From: Desulfobacteraceae bacterium
GTDB taxonomy: Bacteria; Desulfobacterota; Desulfobacteria; Desulfobacterales; ETH-SRB1
Length of the DNA stretch: 64,000 bases
Direction of reading: 5' to 3'
Assembly (NCBI GenBank): GCA_013792055.1
Contig: VMSQ01000314.1
Span: forward strand, 8,876 to 72,875
Positions 10,590-37,903 of this stretch are shown here, piece after piece (the first letter of the stretch is position 1; every line of letters starts with the position of its first letter). The notes under the pieces are model-generated. The model had not been told where the DNA came from and did not search any database. It was given only the letters and a program-made list of their open reading frames with translations. A program made the translations under genes and the position numbers.

Positions 10590-10732
10590 GAGACCTTTTG
10601 AAAAATGTTCAATTTTGTTCAAGTTCAAGGAAGGCGAAAATTTTAAATGCAGGAATACCTTGAGTATTTCGAGGCTTAAAATTTGAGCCTGACGCCAAAA
10701 TTGGGCAAAAGGGGGCGTTTTGCAAAGGTCTC
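10590..10732 (+). repeat. structured intergenic repeat, copy C
   Basis: GAGACCTTTTGAAAAATG...core...CGTTTTGCAAAGGTCTC. It is flanked on both sides by inverted GGTTCAC-type heptamer motifs (10571-10589 and 10733-10757). Confidence 0.85.
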
Positions 10733-19261: not shown

Positions 19262-20440
19262 TTGACAACTTCGGATAAGAAAATTTTTGCCGTCCTGTTC
19301 TTCTCAATTTTTGTTTCAGTCACAGGAGTCGGCATAGTAGTCCCTCTTCTTCCTGTCTATGCTTATGAACTTGGCGCAAGCGGTTTGTACATTGGACTGG
19401 TATTCGGAGCATTTTCCCTTTCAAGGACATTTTTCCTCCCATATTTCGGCCGGCTCTCAGACAAAAAAGGCCGCAAACCATTAATTGTTGCGGGCCTTTT
19501 AGCTTATGCCCTGATTTCTATAGGCTTTATCTTTTCAAAAAATGTCGAAACACTTATTATAATGCGATTTATTCAGGGCATATCATCTGCCATGCTGATA
19601 CCGGTTATTCAGGCATATGTAGGCGATATAACGCCTGAAGGCAGTGAAGGCCTGAGCATGGGAATGTTCAATATGTCTATGTTTTTCGGCCTGAGCGTCG
19701 GGCCTTTAGCAGGAGGTATGATAAATGAACATTTCAGTCTTAATACATCATTCCTGTGTATGGGCATTCTTGCTTTTTTAAGTTTTTCTTTATGCCTTTT
19801 TCTGCTTCCGCCAACAAAGTCTGAACGAGCTGTCTCACAAAAAAAAGAGGTTGCATCATGGAAAAAGCTATTAAGAGACAAAGATTTGGCAGGTCTTTTC
19901 TTCTTCAGATTCGCATATGCGGCATGTATAGGTGTAATATGGGGTTTCTTGCCTGTTCTGGCGGATTCGGAATTTCATCTTTCCAGCTCTTATATCGGAA
20001 TTCTTGTAATGCTGGGAGTCTTTATCAGCGGTGTAATGCAGACGCCCATGGGCTACATGGCCGATAGATTCAACAAAAGAATTATGATCTTAATTGGAGG
20101 ATTTATAATAGCTTATGCAATTTCATTGTTTAACTGGGCAGACAGCTTTGGGGATTTGTTTATAGCCAATGTACTTATTGGAATCGGAGGCGGTATTGCA
20201 ATGCCTGCGCTGATGGCGATAGCTGTATTAAAAGGAAATACGACGAAAGCCATGGGATCTGTGATGGGCATTATTACAATGGCTCACAGCTCCGGGATGC
20301 TTACAGGCTCTCTTGCCGCAGGATTGATGATGGATATGTTTCAGCTCAGACATGCTTTTTCTTTTGGGTCGCTGATAATGATCCTCGGAACCGGACTCTT
20401 CTTTTTTTATACGTATCACAGGAAGGAAAAAACTGCTTAA
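19262..20440 (+). CDS. MFS transporter
   Basis: 392 aa with about 12 hydrophobic segments and the MFS loop motif GRLSDKKGRKP. TTG start 3 nt after the preceding stop. Its last ~85-125 nt recur twice downstream. Confidence 0.85.
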   Translation: MTTSDKKIFAVLFFSIFVSVTGVGIVVPLLPVYAYELGASGLYIGLVFGAFSLSRTFFLPYFGRLSDKKGRKPLIVAGLLAYALISIGFIFSKNVETLIIMRFIQGISSAMLIPVIQAYVGDITPEGSEGLSMGMFNMSMFFGLSVGPLAGGMINEHFSLNTSFLCMGILAFLSFSLCLFLLPPTKSERAVSQKKEVASWKKLLRDKDLAGLFFFRFAYAACIGVIWGFLPVLADSEFHLSSSYIGILVMLGVFISGVMQTPMGYMADRFNKRIMILIGGFIIAYAISLFNWADSFGDLFIANVLIGIGGGIAMPALMAIAVLKGNTTKAMGSVMGIITMAHSSGMLTGSLAAGLMMDMFQLRHAFSFGSLIMILGTGLFFFYTYHRKEKTA

Positions 20441-20486
20441 AACCGAATAGCATACGCAATTGATGCCCCCCTCTACCGTCCCTGAG

Positions 20487-21359
20487 CTAATAATTAGATT
20501 CTTTTTTCTTGTCTAAAATACCTGTTTTAAGATTTTGTAAAAATTTTAAGGCTTTTTCATAATTCTTATCAGGCAGATATTCTGCTACTTTAATTATAAG
20601 GCTGTCATTTCTATCTGGATCAGTATTGTTCGTCAAAATATCTAAAACAGCTTTCTTTGTTTTTGAACTCATCATTTCGGCCATATCACGGCCCAGCAAT
20701 CTTGCACCCGCATATTCAAAATCAAAATCCTCTGTTTCCATTAAATCAGAATGCGAATTAAATAATCTTTCCTCATTTCCTGCCTGCGAATAATATTTCA
20801 ACAGGGTGGCAATATCAACAGCATCCTTTGTAGGAAATTCATTATGTCTATCATTCCATGCAAAAAGTTTTAGAACAGCCATTCCTGCAAGTGAAACAAA
20901 CCGGACATCAAGTCCGTCTGCCAAATGCACATTGATTGCGCCCTTCCATGCATCCAAAAAACCCATTACATTCATTTCAATAGAGTATTCAGGAGGCCAG
21001 CGAATTATTCCTTCTGATGTTTCCACTGATCCAAAGGGAATTATATCTACTGGATAACTGCCTTTAAATTTTAACCGGTATACTGGTTTTTTGTCTGAGT
21101 AAAAATTACCGGTTGATAAAAGGCTGTCTTTCATTTTTTGATAGTGTTTCCAGTCTGTTACTATGATACCAATATCGATATCCATGGTTTTAAGACCTGT
21201 TGACAAACCATATAGCTGACCAAGAATCAAATCGCGCACAACAGCACCCACCACAAAAAAATCGATATCCATCTTCTTTGCTACATTCTTTATAGCTTTA
21301 AGACAGTCAACAATCAGCGGGTCAGTATTTTTCGATAAGTCTATCGATGTACTGGTCAT
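20487..21359 (-). CDS. nucleotidyltransferase-fold protein, AbiEii-like toxin candidate
   Basis: The track ORF extends to 21416. The Met at 21359 (MTSTSIDL) gives a short overlap with the upstream gene. Pol-beta NTase-like signature FFVVGAVVRDLILG...TMDIDIGI. Positioned directly downstream of an AbiEi-like gene. Confidence 0.6.
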   Translation of the reverse strand: MTSTSIDLSKNTDPLIVDCLKAIKNVAKKMDIDFFVVGAVVRDLILGQLYGLSTGLKTMDIDIGIIVTDWKHYQKMKDSLLSTGNFYSDKKPVYRLKFKGSYPVDIIPFGSVETSEGIIRWPPEYSIEMNVMGFLDAWKGAINVHLADGLDVRFVSLAGMAVLKLFAWNDRHNEFPTKDAVDIATLLKYYSQAGNEERLFNSHSDLMETEDFDFEYAGARLLGRDMAEMMSSKTKKAVLDILTNNTDPDRNDSLIIKVAEYLPDKNYEKALKFLQNLKTGILDKKKESNY

Positions 21360-22377
21360 AAATAATCCTTGCGGTTTCAATATTCCTGTCATCTGCTGTT
21401 GCGATAAGGTCTGCATATATTAATAGCGGAGGCACGAGTGTTTTGTAATTCCATGGATAATCAAAATTCCAGAACTTTTGAAATATTTCTATTTTCCCTT
21501 GCGGATCTTTTTTTAGATGATTCACTATAAGGAATTCATTGATTTCCTCAGGGCCATATATTGTTATTGTCTCAGGTTTTAAGTAATCTGTTAAACGGGC
21601 TGCTGCCGGCTCACCTCCGAGAAAAAACTGGTTTTTCCCCAGGTCAGCTTTTTCCAACCATTCTTCTCTGGTTGCGTTATAGCGTCCTATATATAATTTG
21701 GGCCTCAGTTCTCTTGCATATGCGTTAATCCATGTATCAAGCAGCTTATCAGTATTGGTCAGTTTTCGACCATGCTTTCCTTTGTCCACCAAAAAATTTA
21801 GCTTTCTCAAATCATACATTACCCAGCCGACAGTTCCGAGCGCTACATTTGCAGCTTTTGCGATATCACGATACGGAGCTTTCACAAGTTCAGGCAAACA
21901 AAGCAAAGCAAATACAACCTTAAGTCCTGTGGGCCGAAATGCGCGAACAATTGTTTCAGCGGCAGGAATTTCTTTCCTTTTCTGGCCGATAATATAAACA
22001 AAAAATGGTGGTTCATTGATATATGCATTTCCTGCAGTATCAATAAATGCAATATTAAGCTCTTTCAGTTTCTCGGCCATTGGAGGTGTCACATGCCGGG
22101 TAACCAGTATCCCAGGCTTTCCAAAACGGCGTATCTGCTCGACAACATGCCCGATTGTAGCTTTTGTGATAAATCCTTTTATTTCAGCATAAAAGTTTTT
22201 AAGCTTAACTTCAGGCGCATCGATCTGCAATACAGCATTAGGATGTATTTTTTCTGCAGGTCCAACCTCCAGAATTGTAATACAAAAGCCTGTTGTTTCC
22301 TCAAATGCCAGCTTTGCCGTATTAAGGATCTCACGTTCCTTTACAGCCGGATTATTTATGTTTTTTTGTGTTTTCAT
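21322..22377 (-). CDS. AbiEi-family (type IV TA) antitoxin-like transcriptional regulator
   Basis: 351 aa. The central winged-helix region (YRDIAKAANVALGTVGWVMYDL) and the C-terminal block PPLLIYADLIATADDRNIETARIIY are typical of AbiEi_3-type antitoxins. It overlaps the downstream NTase gene. Confidence 0.6.
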   Translation of the reverse strand: MKTQKNINNPAVKEREILNTAKLAFEETTGFCITILEVGPAEKIHPNAVLQIDAPEVKLKNFYAEIKGFITKATIGHVVEQIRRFGKPGILVTRHVTPPMAEKLKELNIAFIDTAGNAYINEPPFFVYIIGQKRKEIPAAETIVRAFRPTGLKVVFALLCLPELVKAPYRDIAKAANVALGTVGWVMYDLRKLNFLVDKGKHGRKLTNTDKLLDTWINAYARELRPKLYIGRYNATREEWLEKADLGKNQFFLGGEPAAARLTDYLKPETITIYGPEEINEFLIVNHLKKDPQGKIEIFQKFWNFDYPWNYKTLVPPLLIYADLIATADDRNIETARIIYDQYIDRLIEKY

Positions 22378-22634
22378 TGCCTTAATGTCTGTTCATTTTT
22401 TTGTACTGTACACTAATAATGAACAAATGTAAATAGTGAACATCATCGCATCCATTATAGTAGGCAGTCCTTAATTATATAGAGGATATTTTTCTGAATA
22501 GCGACTTATTACTGGAAGAGGTATGGTTTTGAATAGAGTTGGAATCACATGTCTTGCATTGTTTTGACTACGGCGGTACAGCCAATTGAGAAGAAACGCA
22601 TAAAGTCATGACCGTTTCTGAACGTCCCGCAAGA

Positions 22635-22719
22635 ACGCTGATAATGATCCTTGGGACCGGGCTCTTCTTTTTTTATACGTATCACATGAAGGAAAAAACT
22701 GCTTAAAACCGAACAGCAT
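22635..22719 (+). repeat. copy 2 of the MFS gene 3' end
   Basis: CGCTGATAATGATCCTTGGGACCGGGCTCTTCTTTTTTTATACGTATCACATGAAGGAAAAAACTGCTTAAAACCGAACAGCAT aligns with 20369-20453 with a few substitutions. The match includes the stop codon and 14 nt beyond it. Confidence 0.85.
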
Positions 22720-22746
22720 CACCAATAAAATTAGTAAGTTAAATAG

Positions 22747-22995
22747 TTATGAGCATCCACTTCTACCTTCATCCATCTCCTCAGTAAAGCCTTCTTCAGC
22801 CATTTCTTGTTCAAATTTTGGATCTAGTTTTGCGCATTCCTGTGCCAATCGACTTCTTTCAATCCGCGCCAGTTTTTCCGCAACTGCTTCTTGAATAGCC
22901 CTGCTGCGGTTTGTAAACCTTTTTGCCTTGACCAAAGAATCTAAACGATACAATAAGTTTTGATCAATTGTGATTGCAATTTTTGATGCAGCCAT
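22747..22995 (-). CDS. ribbon-helix-helix (CopG/MazE-type) antitoxin, no adjacent toxin
   Basis: The likely start is [22 protein letters not shown] (Met 21 of the track ORF). RHH signature ...[13 protein letters not shown]... plus an acidic C-terminal tail. There is no ORF between its stop and MFS-end copy 2. Confidence 0.7.
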
Positions 22996-23254
22996 AATTT
23001 CACCTCCGATATTACATTGTGTCACACCAAAGATAATTGCAAGAATAAGGTCCATTTTAGGGCGGAGGTTAACACCGCTCTTCAGCGGGCGCTGGCTGTA
23101 TTAAATAGCACACACACGGATCGGATAAAATAGTCATTTCTGGATGTTCACAAGTCGGCTTAACCTTACATATTATATCCCAAATATATTTTTTATGTAA
23201 AAAAGTGTAAAAATATCTTTACAAACAGTCAAATGCCTGGTATGAATATATTAA

Positions 23255-23276
23255 ATATCATATAAAATGATATAAT
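23255..23276 (+). promoter_or_regulatory. palindromic operator overlapping a TATAAT box upstream of the XRE-ImmA gene
   Basis: Perfect palindrome ATATCAT-ataaa-ATGATAT. TATAAT (23271-23276) overlaps the right half-site, about 25 nt upstream of the AAAGGAG RBS and the ATG at 23302. Confidence 0.4.
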
Positions 23277-23301
23277 CATATAATAAATTAAAGGAGTTAT
23301 C

Positions 23302-24405
23302 ATGGAGTGGTTAGGGGAAAAATTTAAAGATTTAATAAAGGAGAATAATTCTTCAATAGTCAAATTAGCTAAAAAGACAGGCGTATCCAGGCAAACAGTA
23401 ACTGACTGGATTAATGGTCAAATCCCCAAAGGCAACCATTTAATTAATCTTTGCAAAATTTTCAAGGTAAACCCCGATTTTTTCTTTTCAAAAGATTTTG
23501 ACAATTCAATATCTGTTCCTGTCCACCGCACAAGAAGGACGGCTAAGGTTACATCGGCAATGCAAAAAGATGCGTTTGAAATGGCCAGAACATATGAAGT
23601 CCTTTTTAAAAATGATGCGAATTCAAGTGTTCTTCCTGTTGTAAGAGTTCATAATCGCACTGATGAAATTGCAAAAAAAATTGCAGAGGAGTTGCGAAAA
23701 AGAGCTGGCCTTAGTCAGGATATCCCTCCTGATTATGAACATACTTTTTCTCTTTTGGCATACCTTGGAATCAAGGTCATATTCCGGTATTTTCCTGAAA
23801 AAATTAAAGCATATGCTTTTTATACAAAGATTCATGGGCATAGAATAGTATTTGTTAACAACAGCACAAATATTATTGATCTGATTTTTCCAGTTTTACA
23901 TGAATCTGTACATGCAATACGAGATGAAATCCAAATTAATAACGGTTTTGATACTGAAGAAGAAAATTTCTGTGACAAAGTTGCAAGTTATATTCAATTC
24001 TCTGATGAATATGTTCATAAGGTATATAATGTCATCAATAGCTTATCTGCAGGTGTCCAGGTAAACAAACTCAAAACTTATGGGAAAACAAACAGTCATG
24101 CTTTATTTGGAATTGCAAAAAGGATCAAAGCCATTGATCCAGATTTTGATCTGAAAATAGGAGGCGCTGATTCTAATTTAAAAAAGGGGTTTCCCTCTAT
24201 TGGTGATATTTTATTTCTGAGTAATGATCCCAGAGATTATGTTGCAAAAATTTCAGCGCTAAGCCCTCTTTTTACAAGTATCATCCTTAACCAGATTGAC
24301 AGTATTACTATCAGTAAACTCGGAGAAATGCTTGGGATTGAAAGTGTGCTGGACGCAAAAGCAGTTAAAGATGAACTTATTAAATTAAAAAGCGCGGCTC
24401 CCTGA
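23302..24405 (+). CDS. XRE-family HTH fused to an ImmA/IrrE-type zinc metallopeptidase domain (COG2856-like)
   Basis: N-terminal HTH (IVKLAKKTGVSRQTVTDWINGQ) and a central HExxH motif (VLHESVHAIRDE). Confidence 0.75.
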   Translation: MEWLGEKFKDLIKENNSSIVKLAKKTGVSRQTVTDWINGQIPKGNHLINLCKIFKVNPDFFFSKDFDNSISVPVHRTRRTAKVTSAMQKDAFEMARTYEVLFKNDANSSVLPVVRVHNRTDEIAKKIAEELRKRAGLSQDIPPDYEHTFSLLAYLGIKVIFRYFPEKIKAYAFYTKIHGHRIVFVNNSTNIIDLIFPVLHESVHAIRDEIQINNGFDTEEENFCDKVASYIQFSDEYVHKVYNVINSLSAGVQVNKLKTYGKTNSHALFGIAKRIKAIDPDFDLKIGGADSNLKKGFPSIGDILFLSNDPRDYVAKISALSPLFTSIILNQIDSITISKLGEMLGIESVLDAKAVKDELIKLKSAAP

Positions 24406-24406
24406 T

Positions 24407-24982
24407 ATGTATATTCTCTGTGATACTTGTAGTGTATTGATGCTGATAAGAATAGCTCCGGATATGTTTCGTGATGATCGCTATGGGTGTGTGACCATCC
24501 AGGAGGTATTTCAGGAATTCTTTCGTACTCAGAAATTTAAAACCAAGTATCCCTGGAGAACAAAATATAAAAGCAAAATCAAGGCATTAATAAAATCAAA
24601 GGTAGAAACAGGTGATTTTAATCTATATCTGGAGGCAATACGAAATATTATCGAGACTGGTAAAATTAATGGAAGAACCAAAAAGTTTTTCAGTTTGAGT
24701 TATGTTGATCAACAAATAGCTGCATGTTCCATTGCTCACGGTTTTAAACTGACAACTGTCGACGATGATCTAAATGACTTTATAATCCAGGAGTTTTCAG
24801 GGAAAACGATTTCTCCATTGGGGATAGTTAATGACTGGATTAAAAAAGGGCTTATTAAATGGGACGATGACCTTCAATCTGTTTTAGAAGATTGGGATAA
24901 ATGCAATGAACATCCACAGCCTAAAAAAGAAATCAAAAGATTTGAAAAACTTTCAGGTTATACATATGCAGGCCCCAAATGA
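24407..24982 (+). CDS. PIN-like nuclease domain protein (toxin/effector candidate)
   Basis: 191 aa, starting 1 nt after the ImmA gene stop. It has an N-terminal acidic residue in YILCDTCSVL and a C-terminal block SYVDQQIAACSIAHGFKLTTVDDDL typical of PIN/DUF4411-like domains, which pair with COG2856 proteins. Confidence 0.5.
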   Translation: MYILCDTCSVLMLIRIAPDMFRDDRYGCVTIQEVFQEFFRTQKFKTKYPWRTKYKSKIKALIKSKVETGDFNLYLEAIRNIIETGKINGRTKKFFSLSYVDQQIAACSIAHGFKLTTVDDDLNDFIIQEFSGKTISPLGIVNDWIKKGLIKWDDDLQSVLEDWDKCNEHPQPKKEIKRFEKLSGYTYAGPK

Positions 24983-25042
24983 GCCTTTATTGAGATAAAT
25001 GATATGATTTTAAGAGGATACAGTTACAAAGAGTTTTGCATT

Positions 25043-25074
25043 AAAAAAGGAGCATTTGCAGATGCTCCTTTTTT
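25043..25074. terminator. bidirectional rho-independent terminator
   Basis: AAAAAAGGAGCAT-ttgcag-ATGCTCCTTTTTT. The GC-containing stem is flanked by an A-run and a T-run, 60 nt after the PIN-like gene. Confidence 0.65.
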
Positions 25075-25210
25075 AAAACTGCAGCGATCCAATTGTACTT
25101 TGATTCGGGAACACGAAAGAAAAAGGTAAGCTATATTTCTCCTTTTTCCAGGAAACTGTAATACCCTTTGTGATTAAATATAATATGATTCAGAAGATTA
25201 ATGCCGAGGG

Positions 25211-25338
25211 TCTCTCCGCCGGATTGATGATGGATATGTTTCAGCTCAGGTATGCCTTCTCTTTCGGGGCGCTGATAATGATCCTTGGAACCGGACTATT
25301 CTTTTTTTATACGTATCACAGGAAGGAAAAACCGCTCA
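25211..25338 (+). repeat. copy 3 of the MFS gene 3' end (longest, most diverged)
   Basis: Aligns with 20313-20436. In the MFS frame it encodes AGLMMDMFQLRYAFSFGALIMILGTGLFFFYTYHRKEKPLNDT*, against the native AGLMMDMFQLRHAFSFGSLIMILGTGLFFFYTYHRKEKTA*. Most nucleotide differences fall at third codon positions. Confidence 0.85.
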
Positions 25339-25389
25339 ATGATACATAAGATTTGATAATAACTTATTGAAATATTCCAAGCATCTAAT

Positions 25390-25818
25390 TTATTTAGCAG
25401 GCGGCTTGACAAGAACTTGACTATGTACAACGTAAATGGGTTCGCCATGGCTGTCGAAACTTTTGGTTTTATTGACGACTGTAATTGCCGGTTTTATTTT
25501 CAAGGTGTTGCCATCCTTTAATTTGTATTCATTCCAGCTTTCTTTAATAGCTTCGAAATCTAAATCTTTTTTTTCAAAGTCACTATAAGTTCCCTCTGTT
25601 GGAGGGGGAGTTGGATCACCTCTTAGTTCTCTCGGTGACTCAACACCAACAACATTTGCCGTGTTGAGCGAATAATTTTTAGGATCATTTTTATTTGGCA
25701 TCACTTTGACCAACACAAGTTTAAATTTAATTAAAGATCCGTTTTCCAACTTATAAAGATTCCAAGGCTCGCCAACAGTCTCAAAATCGACATAATCAAA
25801 GTCCAGATTTTTGTTCAT
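25390..25818 (-). CDS. hypothetical protein with an internal tandem duplication
   Basis: 142 aa with two related ~55-aa halves (DFDYVDFETVGEPWNLYKLENGSLIKFKL... and DLDFEAIKESWNEYKLKDGNTLKIKP...). It starts 31 nt downstream of hicB on the same strand. No family recognised. Confidence 0.45.
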   Translation of the reverse strand: MNKNLDFDYVDFETVGEPWNLYKLENGSLIKFKLVLVKVMPNKNDPKNYSLNTANVVGVESPRELRGDPTPPPTEGTYSDFEKKDLDFEAIKESWNEYKLKDGNTLKIKPAITVVNKTKSFDSHGEPIYVVHSQVLVKPPAK

Positions 25819-25849
25819 AACTTCTCTCCTTATTTATTTTTACCCTTTT

Positions 25850-26443
25850 CTATGCTGTGTAACATATTTCTTTTTCTTCTTTTTCTTTATTAACCGTTTT
25901 TCCGCTTAGGGATACTTTATGCACAGTTGGGAACCATTCAAAACCTACAAAAGGATCCTGTGGCTGACCTACTCCGGTACTAACTGCCTTGCTATATTCG
26001 GGAGTAACTGGCAATTCAAGAATCTTCTGACCAAGATACTTTATGAGCCTCTCCAAGTCGTCTATTCTTAATGCAAAAAGATCGTGTTCAAGATATTTTT
26101 CCAAGGCAGATCTTATGAATTGGTTAAGGCTAAGGCCATCTCTACTTGCTTTTATAGTCAACTGCTTATGTAATTTTGCCGGAATTCTTAAGAGAAATTT
26201 ACCACTGAACTTGTTTTCAGTTACAGGTTCGGGAATTTCTAAGTTCCGAGCTAAACTAACTTCTATCCAGCTGATTTTTGCATCTTCTAACTTTTTTAAA
26301 GCTTCATCTAGTTCTTCCGCGTATGAGCTGCAACCCGGTAAATCAGGTATTTCTGTCACATACTTTATTTTATCGTCATAATCTGTGAACTTATCGATAG
26401 TAATTGGATAGTTCAAATTTAAATAATAATCCAATTTTTTCAT
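25850..26443 (-). CDS. hicB: HicB-family antitoxin
   Basis: 197 aa. The N-terminal HicB fold block is YVTEIPDLPGCSSYAEELDEALKKLEDAKISWIE...EIPEP, followed by the DNA-binding block SGKFLLRIPAKLHKQLTIKASRDGLSLNQFIRSAL. An extra ~60-aa C-terminal tail is present. Confidence 0.8.
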   Translation of the reverse strand: MKKLDYYLNLNYPITIDKFTDYDDKIKYVTEIPDLPGCSSYAEELDEALKKLEDAKISWIEVSLARNLEIPEPVTENKFSGKFLLRIPAKLHKQLTIKASRDGLSLNQFIRSALEKYLEHDLFALRIDDLERLIKYLGQKILELPVTPEYSKAVSTGVGQPQDPFVGFEWFPTVHKVSLSGKTVNKEKEEKEICYTA

Positions 26444-26722
26444 CTAGTTATCCTCCCAATATTCGTCAAGCTCGCCTAATCTTATTAAAGCACGGATTGC
26501 TTTTTTCCTATCTTCTTTTGACACAAATTTATCACCTTTTCCATGCGGCTCATCGGCTATGAATCTCTCATCTTCCCTAATGAATGCCCGACAAGAACCT
26601 CTTTTATTTTCCATCTCAAATTTATATTCTTTAGTTAAAATATATTTATAAGATTTCCATGACAAGGGTATGGAAAAGTCTCTAAAATTGGTGATAATGT
26701 CCTTTTTCTTTGTTTTTGACAA
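26444..26722 (-). CDS. hicA: HicA-like toxin (divergent)
   Basis: 92 aa whose stop abuts the hicB start. HicA-like core ...NKRGSCRAFIRED..FIADEPHGKGDKFVSKEDRKKAIRALIRLG. By eye, GSC sits where HicA proteins usually have GSH. Confidence 0.6.
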   Translation of the reverse strand: MSKTKKKDIITNFRDFSIPLSWKSYKYILTKEYKFEMENKRGSCRAFIREDERFIADEPHGKGDKFVSKEDRKKAIRALIRLGELDEYWEDN

Positions 26723-26848
26723 AATGTGATATCATCCTTAGTATCATTCGTAAATTGATACCTATCTCAAATGATTTATATTTGTCAAGAATTTTTTGAG
26801 GTTAGCAAAATTCGATATATATTCAGACGATTCGATTCAGAAAAGACC

Positions 26849-27454
26849 TTATTCCTGATCTTCATTATGGCGATCGGCGGTGTCATTTGCTATGTCTAAT
26901 GTTTCAATTTTATCAGAATCGATAGGCGTGGTGTGGCCCGTATAATTTTCTGTTTCAGGGCTGCTATGTTTGACTGGTGTAGCTTTGAAGTACATACTTT
27001 TTTCAGAGGCGCTAGGTTTGTCTGGTGAAGGGGTGATGTATATATTTGCATTGATTGATTGCTTTTGTGATTGTAAACGTAACGAAATTTCAAGGTTTTT
27101 ATTGTCTGATCGACATTTATCTAATTCATTTTCTATCAATTTTATTATTTTTAAACGTATCCTGTGTTTTCTGAAGAATGGCCAAATTATAGATAAAATA
27201 ATAAAAATAATAAAAAATAAGATGCATATTAAAAAATCATCCCTATAAGAAAAGGCCTGCTTAATTATTTTTTGGAAGTTATTTGCTAATGGTGGGTCAA
27301 TAAGATTTAAAGAATCCACAATATTTGGAAGATTTAAAAAAATGGAATAAAAAATAGCTAGAATTACAAATAAAGGTAAATCTTTTTTCCAAGAAAACTT
27401 CTCTTCGTCCTTTAATTTGTCAATTTCGGTTTTTTTAGAATTCATAATCTTCAA
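26849..27454 (-). CDS. hypothetical membrane protein
   Basis: 201 aa with two hydrophobic helices (LPLFVILAIFYSIFLNL and LICILFFIIFIILSIIWPFF), then a coiled/low-complexity C-terminus. No family recognised. Confidence 0.5.
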   Translation of the reverse strand: MKIMNSKKTEIDKLKDEEKFSWKKDLPLFVILAIFYSIFLNLPNIVDSLNLIDPPLANNFQKIIKQAFSYRDDFLICILFFIIFIILSIIWPFFRKHRIRLKIIKLIENELDKCRSDNKNLEISLRLQSQKQSINANIYITPSPDKPSASEKSMYFKATPVKHSSPETENYTGHTTPIDSDKIETLDIANDTADRHNEDQE

Positions 27455-27753
27455 TTATTGTAATGGTTGATCTTAAATAAGCACATTTTTTGTCTTGATT
27501 ACTGGGAAAGGCTCACCGCTATTTTACTAATTCTTGCTTATCTAAATGACAAATATGTTATCCAAACAGTCCAGCTTGCTTAAGTGGCATAACGTCCGTG
27601 AAATTGTGACATTTGATATGAGTACGTTAATCTGTTCTGAAAAAGTTTAGTATTGAAATGTCAATATTTCACGGATGTCCAAAGTTACCCACTGTAAAGA
27701 TGACGCCTGTGTCGATGATTTTTTAGAAAACGCGGAACACTTTGTTACGTCTT

Positions 27754-30700
27754 TTACATAAACCCTTCACTACAAACAATTTTTGGAATTTCATAATTTT
27801 CATTATCCAGGCTGCGTCGATCCAGCCATTCTTTGATATTGTGCTGATGGTAAATCCGTACAAGAGACTTTAATAAATTTTCACCAATTACTCCATTCCG
27901 GCGTAAAAGGTTTAATTCTTTATTAATAGCAGTTGTTATGGGGCCACGAAATGCTTTTTCCAAAATATTGATTTGTCCTTTAACATCCTCATCTTCTGCA
28001 CTGCCAAATAATATTCGCAATTCCCGAAGGACATATCTTTGGCTTACTGTCAGTGAAAGAGTGTGTTTTCGCTCTGCCTGACGATGCTTGACTTCTTCTG
28101 TAAATATCCTTTTTGCTCGCATGACGGACTTATTATACCCTGCTGGAACTTTTGTACCTTTCTGGGTTGGGCCACATTTAATTGTTCCAAGAATATGTGG
28201 AATCTCCCTTGAAATTTCTTTTCCGTTTTCTTCCATTAGAAACAACTGTTGATACCGTCCTGCCTGACAGAATACATAAAGTCTTTTTTGATTGGAAGGG
28301 CAGGCTGTACGGATACCGTCACGCAGATTGGCAATCCGTTCATATTCTCCGGGATTGTCCCTTTTTAGCTGTCTTAAAATTTCTTCTGCTTCATTTAAGT
28401 CTAAATAGTACTCTTTATCGTCATCAAACAAGCTTAATTGTCTGTCGCCCTTCTTATCATAGATAGCATACATTTCTTCTGGATTTATTCTTTCCGAACT
28501 ATCGAGTATGGTAGCGTCTTCTCCAATAGTATCGTGAATTTCCTGGATTCGGTTTTGAAGTTTTTGTCGCAAGTTCAAATTTTTTTCAATTCCTGTTTCC
28601 GGCAAAAAATTAAATCCGTAAATTACATCGTTTTTGCTGCCGATTCGATCAATTCTGCCAAACCGCTGAATCAACTTAACTGGATTCCAGTGAAGATCAT
28701 AATTTATAATTTTGTCACAATCCTGAAGATTTAACCCTTCGGCAAGTACATCAGTTGAAACAAGTGTGTTTAATTCAACTTCACCTTTCTGAAATTTATA
28801 TTCAGGATTACTTTTAGGAGAAAATCTGCCTACAATTCGAGCCTTACTCTTATCACCACTGTATATTACATCGACATCTTTTCGCTTGCCACCAGGGTTT
28901 AAGTTTTCATGAATATATCGTGCTGTGTCAGCATATTGAGTAAAAATTAAACACTTTCCTACTTTTAAAAGATCAGTTTCCAGTTCTTTTATTAATGTCT
29001 GAAGCTTAGCATCCTTTTCGGGTGTTATAGGTTCGACCAAAGCAAGCATTTGCTTCAATAATTGGATATCATGTTCAATGTGTTCCTTTAAGATTTCAAT
29101 TTCAAAATCATCTACATTATATTTTCCAGAAACCTTCCTTAGTGCATCCATCAGATCTTGTTCTTCTGCTTGATTTGGTTCATATAAAATAGCCCGCGCG
29201 TCATCCCCTGCCGGAACAAAACCCTGAGCCAATGCTTCTCTGAAGCGCTGGTGCAAAATAAGTAGTCTTCTAACAGTTTCTTTAAAAGCATATACACTTG
29301 ATTCAAAACGTTTAAACAAAAGAACACGAATTAAGCCGCGCAAATTAATCCCAGCGTGTTTCAAACTGCTGTAAGGTTCTTTTCTTTTCATTTCTTTTTT
29401 AACATAATGCCATAGTCCATAACGCGCATAGGTTAATTCTTCTTCTATTGTCTTTTTTGGTTTTCCTTTTCTGGATTTACCAAGATAATTTCTCAATTCT
29501 TGATATAGGCCCTGATAAGTGTCTTCAATACTGTATTCAATGGCTTTTAACACACGATTGGGAAAAAACTGATGCTTTCCTCCAACAAGCACATATGCAC
29601 GTTTGTGCCCATTTTCGTACTGCCAGAATTTTGATGGATCAATTGGCTGGTGAGTCTTTGAGTCAAAACCATACCATCTCAGGATATGATTGCGGGTTCG
29701 TCGAATAAGAATATTTGATAACAAATCTGGAAGTTTTTTCTCGCCCTTTTCAATAAGCTTAAAATAGCTTTTCAAGTCCGGAGGATCAACAGGCAGGTCT
29801 GTTTTGTCATCCTGATGAAAAAGTTTTATTTGATAATAAACATCCCATGCGCTTTTGTTGCGAGGCGTTCCAGTTAAAAAACAGCAGCGTTTGCCGGCTA
29901 CTGCAAGAAAATTTTGAACCACTTTGTATCTTTGTGTGTCCTGATGTCTTAAGTTGTGGCTTTCATCAATCAAAACAAAATTTCTGTCCTTGTACTTAAC
30001 ATCATCCAAAAGGAATGAATAAGAACCATTTTCTCCTTCTTTAAGATATCCCATAGATAATACACGCGCATTAAGCTGATATAATTCATTATAACGCTCC
30101 CACATATCGACCAGTGCCGGTGGACATATAATAAGTGATCTCGCATGTTCCGTCCGTTCAAAATGCTTAATAATCGCAGAGCCTATATAACTTTTACCAA
30201 GCCCTACAACGTCAGCCACAAAAGCTCCGCCATAGTCACGTATCATTTGGACTGTTTGTTTTACAGCAGCCCTTTGAAAATCAGCCAGACGATTGGTAAT
30301 TTCATCATCCCACAAAACTTCATTTTCTTCTCCGCCTTCCAGCCTGTCATTAACCAAAGTATATAAAGTTTTCATATAAATATCATAAGGACGAACTTCA
30401 GCAACCGCCCAGGACTGCCTGATCTCATCCATCAGAGATGCATCAAAATCTTTTGACTCATCCCATAGCTGGTTAAACCATTTTGCCAGTTCAGCATGAT
30501 TGTCGTTTCCTTGCACAACAACATTAAGCTCTGTATTATGAGATATTCCGGAAAGAGAAAGGTTGCTTGAGCCGACAATCCCGATTCCCTTTTCATACCT
30601 TCCATCATCTTGATAATTAAAAATATATGCCTTGGCATGTAAACGTCCTTTAGTATAAACACGAACTTTAAGACGCTTTTCTTCAATCATTTTAACTATA

Positions 30701-31086
30701 GTCTTGAGTAAAGTCTCGCCATCATCTGTCTGATCCATCAGTTCAACAGAACCCCGTATATTATCCGCAGTTTCAGATGACATCCTTTTAGTTTCGGCAC
30801 GTTTGGGATATGCTTGGGCTTCAGCGGCATCTGCAACGAGTTCCAGTCGCCTGTAACCTTCTGCAAGCTGTTCCAGGGTTTCCCTATTTGTGGTATTGCC
30901 GATAAGCAAACGCAACTCTTTTACTTTTGATAAATTGTCAGCTATGCCGGTAAAACCGGATAGAAAAAAATAGCCGACTGCAAATTTGGCAGATTCAGAA
31001 GATGAGAGAATTTGATTAATATGATCAACAAGCTTTTCATTTCTGTTGTCGATGATGTCATGGGTGGGCATTTGGGTTCCCTTCAT
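27754..31086 (-). CDS. PLD-family nuclease domain fused to an SNF2/SF2 helicase
   Basis: 1110 aa. The N-terminus has a single HKD motif (GRLHAKAYIF...GIVGSSNLS). Helicase motifs follow: VVGLGKSYIG (I), VLIDESHNLR (II, DExH), FLTGTPRNK (III), and the C-terminal lobe STDVLAEGLNLQD...NYDLHWNP..LIQRFGRIDRIGS (V/VI). Confidence 0.85.
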   Translation of the reverse strand: MKGTQMPTHDIIDNRNEKLVDHINQILSSSESAKFAVGYFFLSGFTGIADNLSKVKELRLLIGNTTNRETLEQLAEGYRRLELVADAAEAQAYPKRAETKRMSSETADNIRGSVELMDQTDDGETLLKTIVKMIEEKRLKVRVYTKGRLHAKAYIFNYQDDGRYEKGIGIVGSSNLSLSGISHNTELNVVVQGNDNHAELAKWFNQLWDESKDFDASLMDEIRQSWAVAEVRPYDIYMKTLYTLVNDRLEGGEENEVLWDDEITNRLADFQRAAVKQTVQMIRDYGGAFVADVVGLGKSYIGSAIIKHFERTEHARSLIICPPALVDMWERYNELYQLNARVLSMGYLKEGENGSYSFLLDDVKYKDRNFVLIDESHNLRHQDTQRYKVVQNFLAVAGKRCCFLTGTPRNKSAWDVYYQIKLFHQDDKTDLPVDPPDLKSYFKLIEKGEKKLPDLLSNILIRRTRNHILRWYGFDSKTHQPIDPSKFWQYENGHKRAYVLVGGKHQFFPNRVLKAIEYSIEDTYQGLYQELRNYLGKSRKGKPKKTIEEELTYARYGLWHYVKKEMKRKEPYSSLKHAGINLRGLIRVLLFKRFESSVYAFKETVRRLLILHQRFREALAQGFVPAGDDARAILYEPNQAEEQDLMDALRKVSGKYNVDDFEIEILKEHIEHDIQLLKQMLALVEPITPEKDAKLQTLIKELETDLLKVGKCLIFTQYADTARYIHENLNPGGKRKDVDVIYSGDKSKARIVGRFSPKSNPEYKFQKGEVELNTLVSTDVLAEGLNLQDCDKIINYDLHWNPVKLIQRFGRIDRIGSKNDVIYGFNFLPETGIEKNLNLRQKLQNRIQEIHDTIGEDATILDSSERINPEEMYAIYDKKGDRQLSLFDDDKEYYLDLNEAEEILRQLKRDNPGEYERIANLRDGIRTACPSNQKRLYVFCQAGRYQQLFLMEENGKEISREIPHILGTIKCGPTQKGTKVPAGYNKSVMRAKRIFTEEVKHRQAERKHTLSLTVSQRYVLRELRILFGSAEDEDVKGQINILEKAFRGPITTAINKELNLLRRNGVIGENLLKSLVRIYHQHNIKEWLDRRSLDNENYEIPKIVCSEGFM

Positions 31087-31099
31087 GTTTTTTTAATTT

Positions 31100-34000
31100 T
31101 CATCTTTTTAAGCTAATTGCTTTTTTAAGTCTCGTGTTTACCATATCGATGACCGCTTCATATACGGCTTCTCGTTCACCCTGAGTTAAGCCTATAGCAT
31201 CGAATACCACATCATCTAAGCGCTTTCTATCCGCCAAGGGGCAAATTTTGGTTTTACTTGTTCCAGTTGACTTGATACCGAACTCCGTCCACACATCGTG
31301 AACAATTCGATTTTTCATTGCCTTATATGCATGGTCGAGATCTCGCCTTTCCACCACAGGAATTTTCATTGTAAGGAAGTCCGCCATGAAAAAATCAAGT
31401 ACACCCTGACCAAGACTCTTATTCCCAAGCGTTTCTAAGAATAGAGCGACCAGAGTAGAGTTTAAGTACGCAATAAGTTGGACATCTTTCTCTCGTTTTG
31501 GATGAAGCCTGTAAAATCTCAATGAAATGTATAAATTTGGATTGAAGTGAACAAGAAATGTATCATTGAAGCTTCGTGGAACAAGGATTTTCGCTCCTGA
31601 AATCATCTGTCTTGTGGGCTTAAACCAAGGGCGCTGATGTTTAGTCACAGATCGCCGATGATAGCCTTGCTGCTCGCCCCATTTTATATACTTTTTTACC
31701 AGATGGCTTGGATTCCCTTTGACCACGAGACAGTGGGCATCATAGCCATTGATTTCAATGCGTTTATTCTTCCTAGTATAATCCTTGACTAAAGGTACGA
31801 GATACTTTTCTTCGATTTCGCCTTCAAATGGTTTCCCATTGGGTGTCGTGGTGTGGTCATTAACAACGAAAAACAACCCCTTCTTAACTATCTTAACTTT
31901 ATTAAGAATAAAGAAGCCATCCGCACCACCTGTATTCAGATACCGTTCACCATCAAAGTAATAGTTCAACTTTTTGATCAAAGATTTTCCTTTTTCCAAA
32001 ATAGTCCAGTAAATATCAGGCGCTCGCAAATATTTACCTCCCCATTTATTGCCGATATATTTTGCTACTTTTATCAAAGGAGCTTGCTTCGGCTTTTTTA
32101 CTCGAACTTTTTGACTTTCCTCTTTAGAGTCTTCATCCACATGAATTTCGCATCCATCCTCAAGAAGTTGTTTCTGTATTATTGGATTAACACGATATTC
32201 AGGCGTGGTTTTCCGTTTTCTTGCTGTTTCAATTTCTTCAAAAATAACCGGTGATATAATATGCTCAAAAGGCTCTTTAAACATCACAAACCTTGCAGTT
32301 TCTTCCAGCCTTGTTTCTTTTTTCATATCGGGTGACGAAAAAAGCACAATAATCGTATTTACATCAGCAGAGGCAAATGAACGCTTTGCCTGGTTATCAA
32401 TTACCATTTTTATGTGGCAGTGTTTAAGAAGGAATTCCTGCAGGCGTTTTCCATAACCAACATCAAGCCAGGAATTGGATGTGATAAAGCAGAATGAACC
32501 CTTTGGATTTAAAAGCGAAAGACCATGTAAATAAAAATATATATAAAGGTCGCTCCTGGCATCAATTTTATTTGCGGCAGTATCTTTTGAGGCATTATAC
32601 TCAAAGAAACGAGGAAAGGCCTGATATATAGACCTTGCCAGTTTGGCTTTGTATTCTTTTTTGTTTGAAGTTGTAACCTCTTCATCGGAAAGCAGGGAAT
32701 CTGAAATATTTTCCTGTCTTACATATGGAGGATTTCCAATAACAATATCAAAGCCTGAATTTATACCACCAAAAATTTCAACAAATGCAATGTCCCAGAC
32801 AAATGGAACATCTTTCACGTCTTTTAAGGCTGATCGTGCTTGTTTTATGCGTTCCATATCTTGCTGTAAAATTAAAATATCTTTTTGTTTATCAGAGGAT
32901 TTCAGGCCAAGTTCAGCCTGATATGGTTTTGGTTCTGAGAATCCCGCAAAGTCAGGTTGTATATATTTCTTTCCAATAGACATTTCCTGTGCTCTTTGGA
33001 TTTTTTTTATTTCTTGTTCAATGTTATGTTGAAGGGTTCCCAAAATATCGCGGAAAATCCGCAGTTCCTCATGCATGGCCTCATCGGTTGATCGGAACTG
33101 ACAGGATGGGTCATTATTATAGAATTTAAATTTTCCTGTTTTAAGTTTTGTAAGTCGGTTTATTATTGTCGAAGAAATATTTTGTGAACTTTGAATATGT
33201 CCAAGATTAATGCCGCCGACTTCTTGAACAAGGCTGTCCCCGCAGCGAATTTTGAAAGAAAAATGCGGCAATAAAGGTTCTTTTCTTATATGGAGATCTG
33301 CGGTAGGAATTTCCGCATCTATGATGAGTGCAAGCCAAAGCCTAAGCTCTGCTACATGGCAGGCCCAAGCCATGACATCTACACCATAAAGGCTTTCCCT
33401 GATAATTCTTTTTTTCCGGTCATAAGGTGTCTCAGTTGATTTAAGTTGTTTTGCAGCCCTGTCCTGAAGGTCATCCAGAATATACAGCATTCCAACTAAA
33501 AAAGAACCAGATCCACATGCAGGATCTAAAACAGTAATTTTACTCAAACTGTCATTAAATTCTTTCCATAAGTTGGCATCTGCCAAAGCTTTATCGGCAA
33601 GAGTTTTTTCATCCAGTTCAAACGCAAAAACAACCTCATATATAAGATCTTTGTATTTTTTGCCTACATGATTTGTAAGATTATCTACAAGCGATAGACG
33701 GCACATAAGATCAATTTCAGTTCTTGGCGTGTAAAAAATACCGGCATCGCCGCGTTCATCAACTTCATCTGAAACATTGACTAAGCTCTCATATACTTTT
33801 CCAATCATTTCCGGATCAACCGCAACTTCCTTATCAAGAGGGCTATCTTCAGAAATAGTGAAATTATATTTCTCCATAAAAGCAAATAGTTGTTCAAAGC
33901 GTACGTCAGTAATTTTTGCTGGTTTTTGATCCAGATCATTTTTCTGAAACAGTCCACCGTTAAGATAAGGGGCTGTTGCCAAAGCTCTCTTTATTTCTTT

Positions 34001-37898: not shown

Positions 37899-37903
37899 CG
37901 ATA

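Follow-up and report, generated by a model that had tools for sequence, protein, structure and literature searches.

The window analysed here, the whole 64-kb stretch of DNA from an uncultured relative of sulfate reducers, contains an intact MFS transporter gene of 392 aa (19262-20440, forward strand; Pfam MFS_1, E 7.6e-63), which closes a core-gene block, RtcB-MT16-BacA-PGM-MFS, whose synteny is kept down to 57% identity. The right-hand core flank is lnt (37904-39487; Pfam LNT_N and CN_hydrolase), preceded on the same forward strand by the rest of the native MFS-lnt intergenic sequence (37801-37903), which is matched by one related locus (L097) and by the end of another (L002). A repeat search and a blastn comparison of the MFS gene against the whole window returned exactly three significant copies of the MFS 3' end, in direct orientation as the sequence-only reading had claimed, and no fourth at a significant level. 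Copy 1 (20305-20453, forward) is the real gene end and serves as reference. Copy 2 (22636-22719, forward) is a partial end of 84 nt with 94.0% identity to 20370-20453 (E 9.3e-32); it starts 17-18 nt ahead of the anchor GGAACCGG and contains the stop codon and 13 nt past it. Copy 3 (25207-25351, forward) includes a 127-nt match (25207-25331; 90.6% identity to 20305-20431; blastn E 8.7e-45). The core common to all copies spans approximately 20370-20431 (63 nt). Within 20318-20431, copy 3 differs from copy 1 by seven synonymous and two replacement changes (H to Y and S to A), a recount that agrees with the earlier tally, and copy 2 differs from copy 1 by three synonymous changes and one replacement (R to M). 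All three replacements occur in full-length MFS alleles of relatives, and the partial copies carry allele states known from functional MFS genes. The copies themselves showed no hairpin (z +1.3 to +2.0, shuffled controls having more single-strand structure) and no dif-like core or 11-6-11 dif-like site, and the shared core no inverted-repeat architecture.

Although MFS homologs are 88-98% identical, their C-termini are strongly variable. The native tail, seen at empty sites, is of type I (..AAAATTGCTCAATGATACATAAGAACATCC). The intact gene in the window instead ends in a type II tail (20432-20478, forward; ..AAACTGCTTAAAACCGAATAGCATACGCAATTGATGCCCCCCTCTACCG), which comparison of relatives identifies as a non-native 3' end and flank and which is found before AbiE, MazEF, HigBA, RHH-only and Abi_alpha cassettes in different genomes. 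On this comparison, the last codons and 3' flank of the intact MFS gene are imported, and copy 3, which begins at about -80 and carries a type I tail, is the displaced native gene end with native intergenic sequence still attached. Copy 2 is followed by a type II tail and then by a 25-nt insert (22729-22753).

The first interval between copies holds cassette A (20482-22609, reverse strand), in which Pfam supports the AbiEi half of the AbiEi/AbiEii-like pair noted earlier (gene 21322-22377; AbiEi_2, E 2e-38), the AbiEii-like gene (20487-21416) giving a weak match below the Pfam cut-off (5.5e-4). A 26-nt filler (22610-22635, forward) lies between cassette A and copy 2, and its last 12 nt (GTCCCGCAAGAA) adjoin this copy in L093 too, in a different setting. 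Beyond copy 2, cassette M' (22747-23055, reverse) consists of an RHH (MazE-like) antitoxin gene (Pfam RHH_1). Its MazF partner is absent in the window and present in L005 and L087, where PemK/MazF adjoins an RHH gene 96-100% identical to that of the window. There follows, at 23078-23105 (forward), a truncated hairpin left arm joined to the vestige of a mostly deleted fourth copy (GGCGCTGGCT then GTATTAAA), the vestige proper being GGCGCTGGCTGTATTAAA (23088-23105). This vestige is recognisable only through comparison with L005, which at the same point runs on into a 246-nt MFS copy; the MFS alleles of L004 and L089 read ATGGCGCTGGCTGTATTAAAAGG there, and approximately 300 nt are deleted directly after the vestige. 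Cassette X (23106-25206, forward; Pfam and PADLOC) comprises a leader, the gene of an RmrA-like XRE-HTH/M78 protein (23302-24405; weak M78 match, RmrA of RosmerTA at 1e-10), the gene of a 191-aa partner (24407-24982) for which no family, PDB or usable structure match was found, and a right flank. In seven related loci (L006, L007, L012, L013, L016, L084 and L092) it stands directly after the native type I tail. The copies had been read as bounding two gene sets, the second made up of an RHH antitoxin with XRE-ImmA and PIN-like genes. The RHH gene and the XRE HTH with its weak M78 match are supported, and the PIN-like assignment comes from motifs judged by eye only; the set itself consists of two cassettes, one MazE-only and one RmrA-like/191-aa, with the copy between them deleted. 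Past copy 3, a 12.4-kb variable defence segment (25352-37800, reverse; Pfam and PADLOC), missing in L002 and L097, forms a third variable unit. It opens with a 142-aa ORF, HicB, a 92-aa ORF and a 201-aa ORF, and continues with an HKD+SNF2 helicase (27754-31086), a type IIG-like methylase (31100-34843), DUF429/PDC-S44 (35068-35814) and a 446-aa protein without a family (35937-37277); its GC content is 0.31-0.39 over most of its length, against 0.40-0.45 in the upstream core genes. Seven window ORFs in all (191, 142, 92, 201, 446, 200 and 421 aa) received no family assignment.

All comparison data are metagenome contigs, comprising about 25 related loci with sequence 3' of MFS, and chimeric assembly or binning might be thought to have produced both the repeats and the cassette order. 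Many of the related contigs break off in a copy or at its edge (L005, L010, L012, L085, L088 and L089), L008 carries an implausible inverted cassette, and L089 was binned to an archaeon. However, two contigs of NCBI MAGs and one ENA contig show the three-copy layout with 99.8-99.99% identity, cassette boundaries agree to the nucleotide between different assemblies, and assemblers are able to resolve the copies because these diverge by 6-10%. An artefact is therefore highly improbable; reproduced in three independent assemblies, the layout is real.

The related loci support the earlier proposal of serial insertion at the MFS 3' end by incoming DNA that brings along a gene end of its own. There is an empty site in L097 (MFS-lnt-prfB-HD, with identical flanks on both sides), and an intermediate in L002, where copy 3 runs directly into the native MFS-lnt intergenic sequence upstream of lnt. 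At least 10 different contents were found downstream of MFS across the set, including AbiE, HigBA, MazEF, RosmerTA-like, Fic/Lamassu, Abi_alpha, GmrSD and type IIG restriction-modification genes, so that relatives carry many alternative cassette sets rather than one identical arrangement; wherever arrays occur, the cassettes are parted by gene-end copies. HigBA cassettes 97-99% identical, with a copy boundary near -78 in both, are followed by MazEF in L005 and by cassette X in L092, and cassettes thus assort independently. The AbiE block of 2.1 kb also occurs, 92-93% identical, at a second locus beside Peptidase_M28-cspA-polA (L100-L106), an unrelated hotspot with different flanks. Starting at +4 and extending over about 1.3 kb of AbiE, L004 matches the window at 100% identity (20588-21487 likewise at 100%), whereas its flanking core genes are 93-98.7% identical. 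L002 and the window agree at 99.9% identity along 7.4 kb, apart from clustered SNPs between +12 and +46 of copy 3, beside the 12.4-kb indel. At +27 to +40, the core haplotype goes with the array and not with the cassette. The MFS-lnt interval is probably a hotspot that takes up toxin-antitoxin and anti-phage genes by horizontal transfer.

Both parents were identified for only two or three junctions, and two copy boundaries fall on microhomologies between identifiable parent sequences. At the RHH flank, one parent is represented by L093, which reads CAGCGGGCGCTGGCT followed by TTTGCGC in the loop of an intact hairpin (-17.5 kcal/mol, z -4.65, 0/200 shuffles), and the other by the MFS allele of L004 and L089, GATGGCGCTGGCT followed by GTATTAAAAGG; the product, CAGCGGGCGCTGGCT joined to GTATTAAA in both L005 and the window, has a perfect 10-nt overlap. 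At the cassette X flank, the parents are GAGGGCCTCTCCGGCCGC in L092 and AGGCTCTCTTGCCGCCGGATTG in MFS, and the window reads GAGGGTCTCTCCG joined to CCGGATTG, the left boundary of copy 3 lying at a microhomology with the sequence after cassette X in L012 and L092. Outside these junctions, the left boundaries lie at -18 for AbiE, at about -78 to -91 for HigBA and at -123 for RadC-ended cassettes; that of the MazE cassette lies at -190 in both L005 and the window. The changeover from native to type II sequence comes no earlier than +50 in L088 and L094 and no earlier than +44 in L092 copy 1 and L084 copy 2; after HigBA it comes no later than +5 (L005 versus L092).

These data can be weighed against site-specific tandem accretion, in which integrase-less elements, either decayed or moved in trans by a recombinase from another part of the genome, would target an att site in the MFS 3' end, each unit's attP being a mimic of the gene end as in cis-mobilizable elements (CIMEs), pseudo-SCC elements and degenerate tycheposons. 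Direct repeats of the target end flank every unit, the imported tail restores the gene, all copies share one 63-nt core, and the conserved type II tail (about 50-80 nt) before five cassette types would also fit a shared element end for a recombinase. Tandem accretion at 3' gene ends has precedents in ICESt1/CIME at fda (PMC5704250), in the ssrA islands of Dehalococcoides (PMC3146451) and in stacked tycheposons, where partial-tRNA repeats separate units and degenerate remnants (10.1101/2020.12.28.424599). A single crossover site at +4/+5 would fit three breakpoint comparisons, and a point that was fixed at first could have been obscured by later gene conversion. However, no integrase or recombinase domain was detected by Pfam in window ORFs of at least 120 aa not shadowed by a larger annotated gene (NCBIfam was used for the 442-aa ORF at 61420-62748, and the upstream core genes have Pfam assignments), as the sequence-only reading had also found; no such domain, tyrosine or serine, was present among the genes inspected 3' of MFS in the approximately 25 related loci, and searches of viral, phage and plasmid collections did not find the MFS-end site. 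Further, left boundaries are cassette-specific, one of the two at microhomologies lies inside a hairpin intact elsewhere, the switch points are spread, and the core shows neither an inverted-repeat architecture nor a hairpin nor a dif-like motif. Accretion of this kind is therefore unlikely. A purely local origin is less likely again: here, in-situ tandem duplications of the MFS 3' end and its neighbour would arise by unequal exchange at microhomologies, with one duplicate then replaced or decayed and no unit of cassette and gene end moving between genomes. Microhomology junctions would be the expected remains of short-junction duplications, and array-specific core haplotypes are expected if copies stem from the array's own gene. 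However, HigBA has the same copy boundary in L005 and L092 despite different core haplotypes and neighbours, the MazE boundary is shared by two arrays, the AbiE tract is 100% identical across lineages with 2-7% core-gene divergence, and the partial copies hold alleles foreign to the resident gene; transfer between genomes is therefore required, and the L004 and HigBA comparisons already suggest that the cassette-plus-copy units have a different history from the core genes MFS and PGM.

The evidence favours gene-end-anchored homologous recombination, combined with microhomology-mediated illegitimate joins, over att-type integration. Of the two mechanisms offered earlier, homologous recombination is thus kept and extended; att-type integration is not favoured, because no integrase was found, the boundaries are cassette-specific and lie at microhomologies, and the crossover points are scattered. 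The model that we consider probable is an integrase-free hotspot in which illegitimate joins create partial gene-end duplicates that then act as anchors for RecA-type cassette insertion and exchange. First, as two junctions show, a microhomology-mediated join links DNA just past a cassette to a point in the last 80-190 nt of MFS, possibly via a looped-out circle, unequal sister-chromatid exchange or a one-sided join of incoming DNA, to yield a unit of cassette and partial gene end. As the architecture and haplotype mosaics suggest, this unit may recombine with the resident MFS end in a Campbell-like insertion, leaving MFS intact with an imported tail and the earlier gene end shifted downstream as a partial copy. 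Comparison of arrays shows that multiple copies then act as portable homology anchors, through which cassettes can be swapped, added and lost between strains, and that the copies themselves undergo gene conversion. Circular intermediates, RecA dependence and the cell-to-cell route are parts of the model that we infer. Toxin-antitoxin and abortive-infection cargo may be enriched because addiction modules would resist loss via direct-repeat recombination. For the window, read outward from lnt, the native end would be copy 3, with cassette X inserted first, MazEF next and AbiE newest; mazF and the gene-end copy that trailed MazEF would have been lost later by deletion, and the 12.4-kb segment would be a separate insertion just past the native tail.

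Several known systems resemble parts of this array. SCCmec and pseudo-SCC at rlmH are cases of tandem accretion at a gene end; as in these and in ICE/CIME elements and tycheposons, direct repeats of the target gene end surround each unit, the newest unit adjoins the intact gene with the displaced native end on the far side, and integrase-less units are known inside such arrays. Unlike them, no member of the MFS-lnt arrays compared has an integrase, the long repeats (85-250 nt) have left ends at microhomologies that differ from cassette to cassette, the crossover point is not constant, and the units are very small (0.7-2.5 kb), each holding a single toxin-antitoxin or Abi module. Integron arrays and integrase-less attC clusters (CALINs) likewise hold small, independently assorting, toxin-antitoxin-rich cassettes, mostly promoter-less or self-contained, between repeated recombination sequences; a nearby integrase can be absent, and toxin-antitoxin cassettes stabilise chromosomal super-integrons. 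However, the repeat here is a coding-sequence fragment and not attC, with less single-strand structure than shuffled controls, and IntI and attI are lacking. Xer-dependent modules, such as the pdif modules of Acinetobacter plasmids and IMEX elements, are small, lack their own recombinase, often carry toxin-antitoxin genes and have a repeated boundary site served by host enzymes, although such an 11-6-11 site is absent from the MFS-end copies. Homology-facilitated illegitimate recombination, Campbell-type insertion-duplication and transformation merodiploids have reportedly been described; in these, as here, a homologous anchor and a microhomology join at the other end duplicate the anchor around foreign DNA, but as single laboratory events, whereas in natural populations the products at this locus appear to be fixed, reused and stacked. 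Integrase-free defence hotspots between core genes (PMC5635113), including the core defence hotspots of Pseudomonas aeruginosa (PMC10250203), share variable defence and toxin-antitoxin cargo amid conserved core genes without integrase or transposase genes, recombination mosaics in a flanking core gene, and empty and occupied alleles in the population; hotspots without mobile-element genes show elevated homologous recombination in flanking core genes (PMC5635113). The repeat-partitioned layout was not found in the cited literature on such hotspots. Unlike in those, the MFS 3' end is duplicated several times within the island and therefore provides anchors between individual cassettes and not only at the island edges, and the junctions reveal the origin of the duplicates in microhomology joins.

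The presence of three direct copies of the MFS transporter 3' end, as described in the sequence-only reading, was confirmed by a repeat search and by sensitive blastn of the MFS gene against the whole window. The gene itself (19262-20440, + strand; Pfam MFS_1, E 7.6e-63) ends in copy 1 (20305-20453), and two partial direct duplicates lie downstream: copy 2 at 22636-22719, which matches 20370-20453 at 94.0% identity across 84 nt (E 9e-32) and spans the stop codon and 13 nt past it, and copy 3 at 25207-25331, which matches 20305-20431 at 90.6% identity across 127 nt (E 9e-45). Neither search gave another significant copy in the 64 kb. An assembly artefact is ruled out, as the layout recurs at 99.8-99.99% identity in three contigs, two from NCBI MAGs and one from ENA. 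The repeated segment is in-frame MFS coding sequence; the earlier count for copy 3, seven synonymous and two replacement differences (H to Y, S to A), was right, and copy 2 differs from copy 1 at three synonymous sites and one replacement (R to M). All three replacements are allele states of full-length MFS proteins in relatives, which means that the partial copies come from working MFS gene ends in other lineages. Where compared, the MFS genes are all full length, and repeats containing the MFS 3' end flank each unit in the window and in three related loci on other metagenome contigs (L005, L084 and L092). Copy 3 also lies within a 59-aa ORF with a GTG start (25170-25349), in which 10 unrelated N-terminal residues are fused ahead of the MFS part and whose predicted product is the transporter's last transmembrane helix.

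By the source names of the related records, the host belongs to an uncultured Desulfobacterales/Thermodesulfobacteriota lineage. The gene order RtcB-methyltransferase-BacA-PGM-MFS is kept down to MFS homologs of 57% identity, and the sequence downstream of MFS differs almost everywhere. At the empty site of L097 (a related locus of 90-93% DNA identity), MFS is followed after 247 nt by lnt-prfB-HD and a 1108-aa oxidoreductase, which also border the island in the window; in other species the empty sites read MFS-rluA-carD-pth (L086, L096) or MFS-convergent birA (L090, L091). Because L097 and other relatives have empty sites, the 17.4 kb at 20441-37903 represents inserted material, most of which has a GC content of 0.31-0.39 as against 0.40-0.45 in the upstream core genes. 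At least 10 different cargos occur in the approximately 25 related loci, so that the accessory content between conserved core genes is highly variable, empty alleles included, and the serial insertion proposed from the sequence survives this comparison of layouts (L001-L097). Outside the island, a PIN-domain gene at 47874-48272 (Pfam PIN, 3.5e-16) is unrelated to the arrays and is presumably part of a VapBC-type pair. The prfB (RF2) ORF begins at 40081, homology to L097 extends from approximately 39849 (window 39849-40935) and the L097 gene call is longer (304 aa), a discrepancy consistent with the usual programmed +1 frameshift.

The annotated island genes are all defence or toxin-antitoxin genes by Pfam and PADLOC. 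In the window these comprise AbiEi/AbiEii, an RHH antitoxin, HicB, a DUF429 protein (PADLOC candidate PDC-S44), an XRE-HTH/M78 protein matching RmrA of RosmerTA with a 191-aa partner without known family (cassette X), and an HKD+SNF2 helicase with a type IIG-like methylase. The 191-aa "PIN-like" protein, whose single-sequence AlphaFold model was too poor to use (mean pLDDT 39.5), and a 446-aa protein returned no family and no PDB relative in profile and PDB searches. Downstream of MFS, relatives carry HigBA, MazEF, a different XRE protein with an Eco57I-like enzyme, RadC fragments, Fic with Lamassu LmuB, Abi_alpha and DUF4062, GmrSD and a Schlafen/AlbA_2 protein. The window shares with L001 and L003 the order MFS, AbiE, copy, MazE-only plus X, copy, 12.4 kb, lnt, and L002 is the same minus the 12.4 kb (25352-37800), copy 3 running straight into the sequence upstream of lnt. 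That 12.4-kb segment replaces approximately 5 nt (ACATC) of native intergenic sequence with no flanking duplication, and contains HicB, the HKD(PLD)+SNF2 helicase (PADLOC C3a139, 4e-86), the methylase (1247 aa), DUF429 (PDC-S44, 1.5e-70) and the 446-aa protein without detectable family; the helicase-methylase pair may constitute an uncharacterised restriction-like system. Other arrays are MFS, HigBA, copy, MazEF, copy (L005); MFS, HigBA, copy, X (L092); MFS, MazEF (L087); MFS, X and an unrelated gene (L006, L007, L013, L016); MFS, Abi_alpha (L094); MFS, Fic-Lamassu (L095); and, in L084, MFS, XRE with a type IIG enzyme through to RadC, copy, small ORFs through to RadC, copy, Fic-Lamassu. The second gene set delimited by the sequence-only reading (RHH antitoxin plus XRE-ImmA and PIN-like genes) is resolved by comparison with L005 into two cassettes. 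In L008, part of cassette X lies inverted upstream of a truncated PGM (1664-2705) in addition to its normal place (4752-5287), which is probably a chimeric assembly at the repeat and not biology.

The AbiE block (20482-22609) recurs, 92-93% identical and without common flanks, at a second hotspot adjoining Peptidase_M28-cspA-polA in related MAGs (L100, 5422-7597; L102, 7724-9896), and one contig with the polA-adjacent block comes from the MAG that also contains L092. L102-L106 have an ISAZ013-family DDE transposase approximately 390 nt away from the block. The window's own block has GTCCCTG on its left and GTCCCGC on its right, a possible 6-nt direct repeat, GTCCC(T/G), that may be a short duplication. 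A search of viral contigs for a relative of AbiEi found none. A 2.4-kb contig (L089, JAZDJX010000007.1), 96% identical to window 20185-22613 (MFS end plus AbiE), terminates at the exact start point of copy 2; it is binned in a 'Candidatus Aenigmatarchaeota' MAG, almost certainly in error.

With +1 placed at GGAACCGG (20387), alignment delimits a core of approximately -18 to +45 common to all copies at all loci, after which the tails split into two kinds. The type I tail (..AAAATTGCTCAATGATACATAAGAACATCC..) is native, being present at every empty site and in more distant species, and in L002 and L097 it runs into the MFS-lnt intergenic sequence that is kept in the window at 37801-37903. The type II tail (..AAACTGCTTAAAACCGAATAGCATACACAATTGA.., with or without a 25-nt insert, then CGCCCCCTTCTACCG) is non-native, and it precedes, in conserved form, all five of the AbiE, MazEF, HigBA, RHH-only and Abi_alpha cassettes. 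A run of A at approximately +41 to +46 (window ~20427-20432, with equivalents in copies 2 and 3) varies among alleles and copies from 5 to 7 residues, and its length just before the stop shifts the frame of the last codons (..KEKTA, ..KEKIAQ, ..KEKLLNDT, ..KEKPLKTE). Many alternative MFS C-termini exist because the run length varies and the tail type differs, and the extreme C-terminus of the transporter is in effect unconstrained. The left boundaries of the partial copies are specific to the preceding cassette: -18 after AbiE, approximately -80 after cassette X, approximately -190 after MazE, approximately -78 after HigBA (equal in L005 and L092) and -123 after the two RadC-ended cassettes of L084, the HigBA and X boundaries lying no more than ~10-15 nt apart. 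A fourth copy, complete in L005, is retained in the window as its first 18 nt (23088-23105, GGCGCTGGCTGTATTAAA), where a deletion of approximately 300 nt fuses this remnant to the leader of cassette X and mazF is gone too.

A repeat family of approximately 141-147 nt, resembling miniature inverted-repeat transposable elements (MITEs) and flanked by 5-6 nt duplications, is also scattered through these loci (window 7157-7297, 10590-10732 and, partial, 4544-4629; L006 6395-6535; L009 10348-10488; L097 ~6093-6234). A copy sits inside the native MFS tail in seven loci (L006, L007, L008, L010, L013, L016 and L085), and another lies between MFS and lnt in L097. Members have a conserved interior and one of two mutually complementary terminus pairs, GTGCCYGAACGAAAAC..GTTTTCGTTCAGGCAC or GAGACCTTTGAAAAA..TTTTTCAAAGGTCTC, and this exchange of termini with the core kept resembles compensatory change within a long stem. 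The family has no Rfam match, and tRNA-Ala was the sole Rfam match in the whole window.

Two of the copy boundaries, those of MazE and cassette X, could be reconstructed with both parents. A strong hairpin, CTCTTCAGCGGGCGC-TGGCTTTT-GCGCTCCGCTGGAAGAG (-17.5 kcal/mol, z -4.65, 0/200 shuffles), stands intact after the RHH gene of L093; L005 and the window exit this hairpin inside its loop, right after GGCGCTGGCT, into the MFS codons GTATTAAAAGG, and the MFS alleles of L004 and L089 read ATGGCGCTGGCTGTATTAAAAGG. The MazE/copy join therefore lies in a perfect 10-nt microhomology (GGCGCTGGCT). Cassette X continues in L012 and L092 into ..GAGGGCCTCTCCGGCCGCTTTCAGCC.., the window reads ..GAGGGTCTCTCCG/CCGGATTGATG at the X/copy 3 junction and MFS reads ..AGGCTCTCTTGCCGCCGGATTGATG, giving an exact overlap of 3-4 nt within approximately 15 nt of imperfect similarity; the tail/AbiE junction has a CTG overlap. 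The MazE and X junctions are signatures of illegitimate recombination rather than of an attachment-site core. For cassette X, both a donor-like state (MFS-tail I-X-flank; L012, L092) and a recipient-like state (MFS-tail I-lnt; L097, L002) are observed, and the X/copy 3 structure of the window corresponds to the predicted product.

Homologous exchange has left its own traces in the flanking core gene, in the form of a 100%-identical tract, a SNP cluster and mosaic, array-specific haplotypes. In PGM and MFS, L004 and the window differ by 1.3-7%; from +4 of the gene end through approximately 1.3 kb of AbiE the two are identical, after which identity returns to 95-97%. Across 7.4 kb, L002 and the window agree at 99.9% identity, the exception being copy 3, where SNPs cluster at +12 to +46 beside the 12.4-kb indel. 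Within an array, every copy carries one haplotype at +27 to +40, and other arrays have a different one even with the same cassette. The HigBA cassette with its attached copy (-78 to +5) is 96-99% identical between L005 and L092 and diverges right after +5, towards the following sequence, and the native haplotype gives way to the type II tail no earlier than +50 in L088 and L094 and no earlier than +44 in L092 copy 1 and L084 copy 2. Such scattered crossovers, conversion and mosaicism are what general recombination on repeats of 85-250 nt would be expected to produce.

It has to be considered whether a site-specific enzyme could have built these arrays instead. The absence of an integrase or recombinase from the window, already remarked on in the sequence-only reading, was borne out by Pfam, NCBIfam and PADLOC searches of the window ORFs, and no tyrosine or serine recombinase was found among the genes examined downstream of MFS in approximately 25 related loci. 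As these are contig-level data, a recombinase encoded elsewhere could in principle act on the arrays, which we regard as unlikely. A fixed crossover at +4/+5, as such an enzyme might leave, fits three comparisons, but L084 copy 2, L088, L092 copy 1 and L094 switch at +44/+50 or later; the switch points range from +5 or earlier (HigBA, L005 versus L092) to +44/+50 or later in a small sample, and subsequent gene conversion could have obscured an originally fixed position. The left boundary of a copy as the crossover of a different site-specific integrase was rejected for HigBA in L092, whose intact gene carries from -78 to approximately +40 the host haplotype and not that found upstream of HigBA in L005. 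It is also conceivable, though we consider it very improbable, that the duplicated MFS end and its conserved 50-80-nt type II tail serve as a dedicated landing pad, an integron-like platform on which single toxin-antitoxin or defence modules would be captured and shuffled by a recombinase elsewhere or by a selected RecA-dependent circle-insertion cycle; if true, Desulfobacterales would possess a gene-cassette system of a new class, one lacking an integrase in cis. Searches of viral contigs with the core and the type II tail, and of plasmids and phages with the copy, returned no match. An attC-like hairpin was rejected, since the copies fold worse than shuffled sequence on both strands (z +1.3 to +2.0), as was an integron or CALIN, the head of the array holding no IntI/attI and the upstream genes being PGM, BacA, methyltransferase and RtcB. 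For Xer modules, defined by a 28-bp dif-like site of two 11-bp arms around a 6-bp spacer, a weak test gave no ATAA-N6-TTAT core inside any copy, and inspection of the aligned copies showed no such site either.

Serial insertion at the gene end is accordingly supported, and of its two proposed forms homologous recombination is favoured over att-type integration by the junctions, the scattered crossovers and the lack of an integrase. Comparison of the loci shows that a cassette-plus-copy unit recurs in different arrays and that the native end is displaced downstream. The following model may be proposed. A microhomology join attaches a partial MFS end to the far side of a cassette, as the junctions show. 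One homologous crossover of the Campbell type between the resulting unit and the resident gene end would then insert the unit, either from a circle or by exchange between sister chromosomes. Adjacent copies and tails could then anchor later exchanges, and the toxin-antitoxin and Abi cargo may persist by resisting loss through repeat recombination. Under this model the locus would be classed as a defence hotspot in which duplicated core-gene ends, produced by illegitimate joins, separate the cassettes and act as recombination anchors.

For defence islands without mobile-element genes, the usual account of how systems are acquired and rearranged, double crossover in the flanking core genes, covers replacement but not stacking. 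The MFS locus keeps nucleotide-level footprints of what may be a route needing housekeeping recombination only, in which a cassette gains a piece of the neighbouring core gene through a microhomology join, the piece allows homologous insertion in any related genome, and each insertion adds an anchor. Public metagenomes contain empty, intermediate and multiply occupied alleles side by side, which makes the model testable, and partial direct copies of a core-gene end inside an island without an integrase are suggested as the signature to search for elsewhere. Unlike integrons and Xer modules (pdif/IMEX), the arrays display no attC or IntI/attI nor, on the weak test above, a dif-like site. In having direct repeats of the target gene end around each unit they resemble the tandem accretion of integrative elements and CIMEs at gene 3' ends (PMC5704250) and tycheposons, and they differ from integrative element/CIME accretion in that the window and approximately 25 loci yielded no integrase. 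Short-microhomology junctions between foreign DNA and recipient, beside a homologous anchor, are found here as in homology-facilitated illegitimate recombination and Campbell-type insertion-duplication. In its variable content, empty alleles and flanking-gene recombination, the locus resembles the mobile-element-free hotspots of Oliveira et al. (2017; PMC5635113).
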